Shown here one piece after another: positions 17,792-17,965 of a stretch of 64,000 bases of DNA (its first letter is position 1; each line of letters starts with the position of its first letter). A program made the translations under genes and the position numbers. Under the pieces are notes generated by a model. That model was not told the origin of the DNA. It saw nothing but the letters and a program-made list of their open reading frames with translations, and searched no databases. The stretch lies in NCBI RefSeq assembly GCF_003334815.1, contig NZ_QOWO01000007.1; one strand, 5' to 3'. This stretch comes from Escherichia coli (GTDB taxonomy: Bacteria; Pseudomonadota; Gammaproteobacteria; Enterobacterales; Enterobacteriaceae).

Positions 17792-17965
17792 ATGACGACA
17801 CTTATTTATTTGCAAATTCCTGTCCCTGAACCGATTCCTGGCGATCCTGTTCCAGTGCCCGATCCGATCCCTCGCCCGCAACCCATGCCTGACCCACCAC
17901 CCGATGAAGAACCGATTAAATTGTCGCATCGTGAGCGTAGATCTGCGAGGATACGCGCCTGCTAA
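17792..17965 (+). CDS. candidate small proline-rich protein (57 aa), unnamed here
   Basis: ATG 4 nt after AGAGGG; hand translation MTTLIYLQIPVPEPIPGDPVPVPDPIPRPQPMPDPPPDEEPIKLSHRERRSARIRAC; below ORF-track cutoff. Confidence 0.4.
   Translation: MTTLIYLQIPVPEPIPGDPVPVPDPIPRPQPMPDPPPDEEPIKLSHRERRSARIRAC

Follow-up and report, generated by a model that had tools for sequence, protein, structure and literature searches.

YnaL, a proline-rich small protein of Escherichia coli encoded between fnrS and dbpA, and the invariant nucleotide tail of its gene

The ynaL gene between fnrS and dbpA

We analyzed a 57-codon open reading frame (ORF) located between the small RNA (sRNA) gene fnrS and the helicase gene dbpA, in a stretch of 64,000 nucleotides of Escherichia coli DNA (RefSeq assembly GCF_003334815.1, contig NZ_QOWO01000007.1), hereafter called the window. 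This frame is ynaL of E. coli K-12, a gene that is already known and translated, and our analysis adds no new gene. What it adds to the known description of the YnaL family is a conservation in two tiers, a linkage to fnrS and the existence of homologues without a downstream dbpA. The proline core of ynaL is selected as a protein and travels with fnrS, and the tail of the gene is selected as nucleotides and travels with dbpA.

As presented in Table 1, ynaL has 57 codons followed by a TAA (17963-17965), and the translation of the window gives the peptide MTTLIYLQIPVPEPIPGDPVPVPDPIPRPQPMPDPPPDEEPIKLSHRERRSARIRAC. The Shine-Dalgarno (SD) sequence AGAGGG is followed by AAAT and by the ATG at 17792, and 29 nt (17966-17994) separate the TAA from the GTG of dbpA at 17995, which is also the RefSeq start. 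A run of three prolines occupies residues 35-37 (17894-17902) in a D-P-P-P-D context (residues 34-38), and the C-terminal tail is basic. All these features, from the SD sequence 4 nt before the ATG to the peptide, its proline run, its basic tail and the gap of 29 nt, had been announced in the original prediction made from this DNA, and we found them in the window as described. The proline content had been overestimated: it was given as about 40%, and we counted 16 prolines in 57 residues (28%), with 50% only inside residues 10-41 (16 of 32).

The original prediction had also suspected a small protein that was already catalogued, and YnaL is this protein in RefSeq, in Pfam and in the literature (PMC6001520). 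RefSeq gives the product name "proline-rich small protein YnaL" (WP_001296046.1), with a sequence identical to the E. coli K-12 protein. Using hmmscan, residues 1-57 aligned with positions 1-57 of the Pfam model PF23677 (E = 2.2e-40, 136.8 bits), and the window protein corresponds to the type member of this family, at the same genomic position and without differences. We recovered 164 YnaL homologues, all with PF23677, and the ynaL region was found in 5393 of 5426 complete E. coli genomes, with ynaL annotated under the match in the genomes sampled. The gene order of the window is K-12-like: dgcM, ynaN, zntB, fnrS, ynaL, dbpA, ttcA and the Rac integrase. Another small upstream ORF is present nearby, the RefSeq protein YnaN, a 15-codon ORF at 16473-16520 located 13 nt upstream of zntB.

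Translation of ynaL is documented in the literature. YnaL was detected as a specific immunoblot band after chromosomal sequential peptide affinity (SPA) tagging (VanOrsdel et al., 2018; PMC6001520), and a tetracycline ribosome-profiling screen had likewise given ynaL as a positive without assignment (PMC6001520). In the group of 13 small proteins to which YnaL belongs, most were present at high levels, and the authors remarked that ynaL adjoins dbpA and that an operon is possible (PMC6001520). The predicted ribosome-binding region of ynaL is strong, with an anti-SD duplex of -6.3 kcal/mol compared to -3.0 kcal/mol for the dbpA initiation region. Our literature search found ynaL named in PMC6001520 only, and no paper tying it to dbpA regulation or to elongation factor P (EF-P). 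The supplements of PMC7815308 do not list ynaL, no transcription start or 3'-end data were found for the locus, and the stored portion of the EfpL pause tables of PMC11611912 did not contain ynaL.

Table 1. Features of the fnrS-ynaL-dbpA region, in window positions.
Feature	Position	Strand	Basis and remarks
fnrS sRNA gene	17613..17730	+	Rfam RF01796, 134.8 bits; terminator scan
fnrS terminator hairpin	17707-17726	+	T tract follows; terminator scan
Promoter-like element for ynaL	17733..17760	+	Inferred
ynaL Shine-Dalgarno AGAGGG	17782..17787	+	4 nt before ATG; anti-SD duplex
ynaL coding sequence	17792..17965	+	RefSeq, Pfam, dN/dS, published immunoblot of tagged protein
Leucine-rich variable N-terminal part, residues 1-17	17792..17842	+	Alignment; invariant nucleotide fraction 0.06
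Acidic X-Pro repeat core DPVPVPDPIPRPQPMPDPPPDEE	17843..17911	+	PPP at 17894-17902; protein-level conservation
Block 1 CCGATTAAA[T/A]TGTCGCAT, codons PIKLSH	17912..17929	+	Nearly no synonymous change, 31 species
Block 2 GATCTGCGAGGATACGCGC, inside codons RSARIRA	17940..17958	+	Invariant in 31 species
ynaL-dbpA spacer, 29 nt, weak ribosome-binding region ACGAGA	17966..17994	+	Terminator-free
dbpA, DEAD-box helicase, GTG start	17995..19368	+	RefSeq start

Selection on the YnaL protein and its linkage to fnrS

The comparative set contained 30 loci, with one genome per species, which together with the window made 31 sequences (the 31 species mentioned below). The ynaL frame was open in all of them, and its SD sequence (GGAGGG in most species) and ATG were conserved. 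Over 40 alignable codons, the ratio of nonsynonymous to synonymous substitution rates (dN/dS) was 0.06-0.25 in the ynaL frame, whereas both shifted frames gave values of 0.9-4.8, most of them above 1. Variable sites were found at 14 first, 14 second and 27 third codon positions, making the third positions about twice as variable. The codon-level conservation that the original prediction had proposed as a check was thus observed in the ynaL frame only. Frame-disrupting indels had been named as a possible refutation, and the ynaL indels that we found were in frame: a 33-nt deletion within the X-Pro repeat of E. coli E69 (L009, 2501-2641) and a 10-residue duplication in the same repeat of one Salmonella enterica YnaL (P0053). 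Overall, ynaL is a protein-coding gene under purifying selection.

A spurious or non-functional ORF, conserved in appearance only through its neighboring elements, could be considered in a region that is rich in short ORFs and where part of ynaL is indeed nucleotide-conserved. However, the proline core accumulates many synonymous changes with few replacements, the frame is held in the 31 species and in distant families, and the detection of the YnaL protein (PMC6001520) already contradicts this explanation, to which we give practically no weight.

The two repeat length variants, in E69 and P0053, are consistent with slippage between repeated proline codons. On the opposite strand, an antisense ORF of 78 codons (17747-17983, minus strand) covers ynaL. 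It is not conserved as a protein and was rejected as a cause of the nucleotide invariance: it stays open only as a by-product of the CCN codons, which read as NGG on the other strand and never give a stop, and it would alter with each synonymous proline change.

The N-terminal part of YnaL differs in length and sequence between genera. In the X-Pro core the amino acids are conserved and the codons are free, and this core is common to the Erwinia, Mixta and Phytobacter homologues. AlphaFold2 predicted an extended chain without secondary structure (predicted template modeling score of 0.23), and the predicted local distance difference test exceeded 90 (90-92) only in the X-Pro core. YnaL would be an extended acidic X-Pro repeat peptide without a fold, of which the repeat core is the part selected as protein. 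Since this core is preserved at the protein level, the function of ynaL is most likely exerted by the protein itself, probably with a partner. The only weak match was to the proline-rich spacer of TonB (NF008084, PF16031), where alternating X-Pro repeats carry acidic and basic residues as in YnaL, and both probably adopt an extended polyproline-II shape. This likeness is compositional only: YnaL scored 20.8 bits against a TonB cut-off of 315, with a Pfam E-value of 0.75 and, unlike TonB, it has neither a membrane anchor nor a C-terminal domain.

A profile search of 1.8 billion representatives gave 34 matches, some of them named in Erwinia, Mixta, Phytobacter and Kosakonia. The distant homologues have a common core, (S/N)(D/E)P.P.DP.P.P(D/E)PIP.PQP.PDPP, without the PIKLSH...RSARIRAC tail, and many end in ...DPPPH(R/M)-stop. 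The order zntB-fnrS-ynaL was held in the 31 species and in the distant homologues (Phytobacter, Mixta, Erwinia and two further taxa), and fnrS was directly upstream of ynaL in every locus examined, as confirmed with Rfam in loci L033, L034 and L036. In Escherichia, Salmonella, Citrobacter, Enterobacter, Klebsiella and others, dbpA is immediately downstream of ynaL. In Phytobacter, Mixta, L033 and L039, ynaL is followed by a convergent ttcA and not by dbpA. An intrinsic terminator was read immediately after ynaL in Phytobacter, L033, L039 and Erwinia (four loci read, the Mixta locus L036 not among them). In Erwinia, this terminator and ttcA lie between ynaL and dbpA, and dbpA starts from the same weak GAGAG...GTG behind a leader of its own. 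Because YnaL homologues are found behind fnrS but without dbpA, YnaL is not simply a dbpA leader peptide. The independent small protein proposed in the original prediction agrees with both the purifying selection and these homologues with their own terminator and no dbpA downstream. Taken together, the gene orders show fnrS as the stable evolutionary partner of YnaL, and ynaL has been inherited together with fnrS across Enterobacteriaceae and Erwiniaceae.

At the loci with a DPPPH(R/M)-stop ending (L033, 2501-2690; L038, 2501-2710; L034, 2537-2730; from Phytobacter, Erwinia and one further taxon, the Mixta proteins being alike), the intrinsic terminator begins within about 8 nt, and the next gene is a convergent ttcA in L033 and L038. 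A ribosome at the PPP or at the stop codon would sit on the 5' arm of this terminator, and translation could thereby affect termination or antisense transcription into ttcA.

Upstream of ynaL, we observed a promoter-like element made of a -35 hexamer TTGCCT (17733-17738), which abuts the T tract of the fnrS terminator, a 16-nt spacer and a -10 hexamer TACCCT (17755-17760). The -10 hexamer lies inside CTACCCT (17754-17760), which is invariant in the 31 species. Promoter-like hexamers with a spacing of 16-17 nt are held to distant taxa, for example TTGCCA-17-TATGCT in Erwinia, despite a variable spacer sequence. A C ahead of the -10 and a TTAA behind it are reminiscent of promoters of the sigma-S type. 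The predicted transcription start lies near 17767, and ynaL would possess a promoter-like element of its own together with a strong ribosome-binding site.

Invariant blocks in the ynaL tail and their link to dbpA

Synonymous variation affected 20 of the 21 degenerate codons in the proline core compared to 4 of 17 in the 3' part of ynaL (Fisher p = 5e-6). The 3' part contains two blocks separated by 9-10 variable nt. Block 2 holds the three rarest E. coli codons, AGA, AGG and ATA, which are never swapped for synonyms in the 31 species, and includes an SD-like GAGGA and a GATC site. Among the invariant runs of a 2.9-kb alignment covering the 31 species, the three longest belong to fnrS (55, 22 and 20 nt), and the next, of 19 nt, is block 2. 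Elsewhere, the longest invariant run was 5 nt in the 1374-nt dbpA and 9 nt in zntB. The nucleotide constraint on the ynaL tail (last ~50 nt) is as strong as on an sRNA.

We then compared the presence of block 2 with that of dbpA. The 19-mer was present in all 32 loci where dbpA directly follows (with one substitution in Kosakonia cowanii) and in none of the 6 loci of the distant YnaL type. In every case block 2 ends 34-36 nt before the dbpA start, for a gap between the ynaL stop and the dbpA start that ranges from 14 to 62 nt. Block 2 is single copy in the 5393 genomes and in the window. In K. cowanii (L037, 2650-2730), a nonsense codon (TAT to TAA), found in every sequence of this species that we recovered, ends YnaL at ...PIKMSR. 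Block 2 persists there in sequence that is now non-coding, with a gap of 62 nt to dbpA, whose start is TTG; this nonsense event may be recent. In a taxon without dbpA and with a PYKLSRV ending, the block 1 codons are synonymously different, with CTA for leucine. Substitutions in block 2 were found in two short metagenome or draft contigs, one of them also with a stop inside dbpA. One such contig (L041, 1-251; GCA_024700915.1) shows several substitutions in blocks 1 and 2 and an early dbpA stop, and represents either a decaying locus or poor sequence. Since block 2 is present only with dbpA behind it and at a fixed distance, these results point to an overlap between the ynaL tail and a cis element with a role at dbpA. 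We read the constraint on these ~50 terminal nt as that of a cis-acting control element of dbpA, acting either as RNA or as a promoter or operator.

As an RNA, the tail gave candidate structures. RNAalifold on the 31 species predicted a hairpin between blocks 1 and 2 (UCGCAUC / GAU-CU-GCGA), a small hairpin pairing the dbpA GUG, and a long-range helix (GAAGAA.CG / CG.UUUUUC) enclosing the dbpA start, with GAAGAACCG as its 5' arm. The minimum-free-energy folds of 28 of the 31 species contain this long-range helix (mean z = -1.2), and folding of the isolated E. coli fragment predicts it with a high pairing probability. Its 3' arm is also conserved in the dbpA of Erwinia, where no 5' arm exists, so that protein coding explains the conservation of this arm. 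An extended hairpin using the variable 9 nt as an arm gave no evidence that this variable part is selected for pairing (mean z = -0.46, 18 distinct sequences), and the covariance models of Rfam 15 gave no match over 17730-18060, even at E <= 10.

Several other candidates were tried and rejected. A mimic of the DbpA target in 23S rRNA found no support, since 17906-17997 scored 19 against rrlH for a shuffle mean of 19.5, and 14 against 14.8 for shuffles when compared with 23S rRNA positions 2441-2620, both being comparisons at the sequence level. Pairing with the FnrS sRNA was no different from shuffles, with -44.5 vs -44.0 overall and -18.9 vs -19.4 for block 2. Among overlapping ORFs, the +1 frame loses its ATG at 17904 wherever Asp is encoded by GAC, and the third frame is interrupted by a stop within block 1. 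A frameshift or readthrough fusion to dbpA was discarded because the gap, of 27, 28 or 29 nt, puts the two genes in different relative frames between species, and because the codon just before the dbpA GTG is a stop. A repeated element was discarded because the tail sequence is single copy in the genomes and in the window.

Alternatively, the invariant blocks could be a DNA element, namely an internal promoter and/or an operator for dbpA, in which case the translation of ynaL would be irrelevant to dbpA. Two invariant blocks with a variable spacer of 9-10 nt, a fixed distance to the dbpA start and a presence only where dbpA follows are all in line with this explanation. Expression of dbpA is weak. 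A separate control would fit its difference from the high levels of most small proteins in the group that includes YnaL (PMC6001520). The internal-promoter candidate is a weak one, an extended -10 TGcGAGGAT (17944-17952) with a start near 17959, which matches 3 of 6 positions of the -10 and has no recognizable -35. In addition, no promoter passed the sigma-70 consensus scan on either strand, an unbroken invariant run of 19 nt exceeds typical promoter hexamers, and we know of no transcription-factor motif that resembles the blocks. We regard a pure DNA element as unlikely.

Relation of ynaL to the expression of dbpA

The gap between ynaL and dbpA is 14-29 nt in 31 of 32 loci, the remaining one being K. 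cowanii, and the terminator scan of 17735-18100 (plus strand) showed no terminator-like site between the two genes. Given this short gap without a terminator, ynaL and dbpA are most likely carried by one transcript in E. coli and its close relatives. dbpA itself has a weak initiation region, with a GTG start, a poor SD sequence and the -3.0 kcal/mol duplex mentioned above. Ribosomes finishing ynaL would end beside this weak GTG, which is the arrangement expected for translational coupling, and we infer such a coupling between ynaL and dbpA. Translationally coupled bicistronic operons have the same short gap, absence of terminator and weak downstream start. The locus differs from them by the gap of 62 nt in K. 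cowanii and by Erwinia, where dbpA keeps its weak start without an upstream ORF, which indicates that dbpA expression does not generally depend on coupling.

The D-PPP-D motif adds a possible layer to this coupling. This motif, a putative stall site with three consecutive prolines, is present in 27 of 31 species and belongs to the strongest EF-P-dependent contexts in XPPX studies. ynaL resembles the EF-P-dependent polyproline proteins (PMC5021804; PMC11611912) by its D-PPP-D, its C-rich RNA and its downstream gene, and differs from them in that PPP is replaced in 4 species. As an unproven second layer, the DPPPD tract would make ribosome flow and transcription-translation coupling dependent on EF-P. 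If a ribosome paused at PPP, it would mask GAAGAACCG, the 5' helix arm, and by this mechanism EF-P could affect dbpA in one direction or the other. Overall, an EF-P-dependent tuning of dbpA would be a reasonable but unproven add-on and probably not the core function of ynaL.

In its strongest form, this idea makes YnaL a pure leader or arrest peptide of the SecM type, without any function of the peptide in trans. A ribosome stalled at DPPPD (P site near 17897-17902) would cover GAAGAACCG at 17906-17914 and free its partner CGCUUUUUC in codons 3-5 of dbpA, opening the dbpA initiation region, and DbpA synthesis would rise when Pro-Pro bonds slow, with low EF-P or a defective peptidyl-transferase center. 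As with SecM-secA, a short ORF precedes the gene, its C-terminal part is conserved and it contains a motif that is difficult to translate. The next start is weak and lies close by, and a paused ribosome could open a predicted helix. Consistent with this, the species with a linked dbpA combine a variable N terminus with 40 conserved C-terminal residues, PPP is flanked by D on both sides, and the closing helix recurs both in the RNAalifold consensus and in the individual folds described above. However, the YnaL family persists without the downstream gene, in homologues where a terminator, and not dbpA, comes next. The motif is not universal either, since PPP is lost in Escherichia albertii, Citrobacter youngae and two Citrobacter (PSP) and in Citrobacter amalonaticus (PPQ), and in K. 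cowanii the ORF ends 62 nt before dbpA. The helix lacks covariation, with a modest mean z and a 3' arm that is conserved in Erwinia without its 5' partner, and full-length tagged YnaL accumulates (PMC6001520). A pure SecM-like leader does not fit the distribution of the YnaL family, and we consider it improbable.

The stalling upstream ORF tuning dbpA translation that the original prediction had proposed thus appears weakened as a general function by the loss of PPP in 4 of 31 species, the truncated tail of K. cowanii and the weak dbpA start of Erwinia without ynaL. A local role at dbpA in E. coli would still be compatible with the absence of a terminator, the gap of 14-29 nt in 31 of 32 loci and an element anchored 34-36 nt from the dbpA start.

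A C-rich and G-poor composition is typical of Rho loading sites, and the proline stretch (17812-17900) has 42-47% C and 18-19% G in 78-nt windows, with a C/G ratio of up to 2.6, which places it in the top 0.08% of the same-strand windows. This stretch could act as a Rho polarity switch, loading Rho when ynaL is poorly translated or when ribosomes lag behind RNA polymerase, so that dbpA transcription would be gated by ynaL translation and EF-P. The extreme composition (C 47%, G 18%) is in line with such a switch, as is the finding that EF-P loss uncouples transcription from translation at polyproline tracts and permits Rho-dependent termination on polyproline mRNAs (PMC5021804). Nevertheless, the C-richness follows automatically from the CCN codons, and the invariant blocks, located downstream of the C-rich part, are left unexplained. 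We judge a Rho switch quite unlikely.

DbpA remodels the 23S rRNA region beside the peptidyl-transferase center. The two tail blocks might be a dbpA cis element that acts together with polyproline translation, as a feedback sensor of EF-P or peptidyl-transferase competence; we regard this as a speculative and rather improbable extension. In a variant, the tail element may be bound by DbpA itself, as an autoregulation.

The explanation that we favor, with moderate confidence, is that YnaL is an independent small protein whose gene, in E. coli-like taxa, is also the first cistron before dbpA, with a tail overlapping a dbpA-linked control element. Several observations weigh against it. We found no YnaL match in the PDB, PADLOC or, above threshold, NCBIfam. 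In a natural isolate, E. coli OSUCMP42NDM (L042, 1788-2653), IS1 is inserted inside ynaL near its 5' end, so that fnrS and the beginning of ynaL are cut off from dbpA and the remainder of ynaL, indicating that ynaL is dispensable in at least that strain. The TTGCCT-TACCCT element upstream of ynaL was below the threshold of the sigma-70 consensus scan. On the RNA side, the ynaL-dbpA leader folded no better than shuffles (z = +1.08), and no compensatory change was found in any predicted helix among the 31 species. Finally, 4 of the 31 species carry PSP or PPQ at the site of PPP, and in Erwinia the equally weak GTG start of dbpA has no ynaL in front of it.

YnaL belongs to the many validated small proteins of E. 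coli, and the comparative picture narrows the options for its function. The invariant tail element is the feature of ynaL most worth following. If DbpA synthesis does respond to a sensor in the tail, its level would depend on the efficiency with which ribosomes form Pro-Pro bonds. A control of dbpA by the tail element, if confirmed, would be the first regulation to be described for this ribosome-assembly helicase, and a compact case of a coding sequence doubling as a regulatory element.

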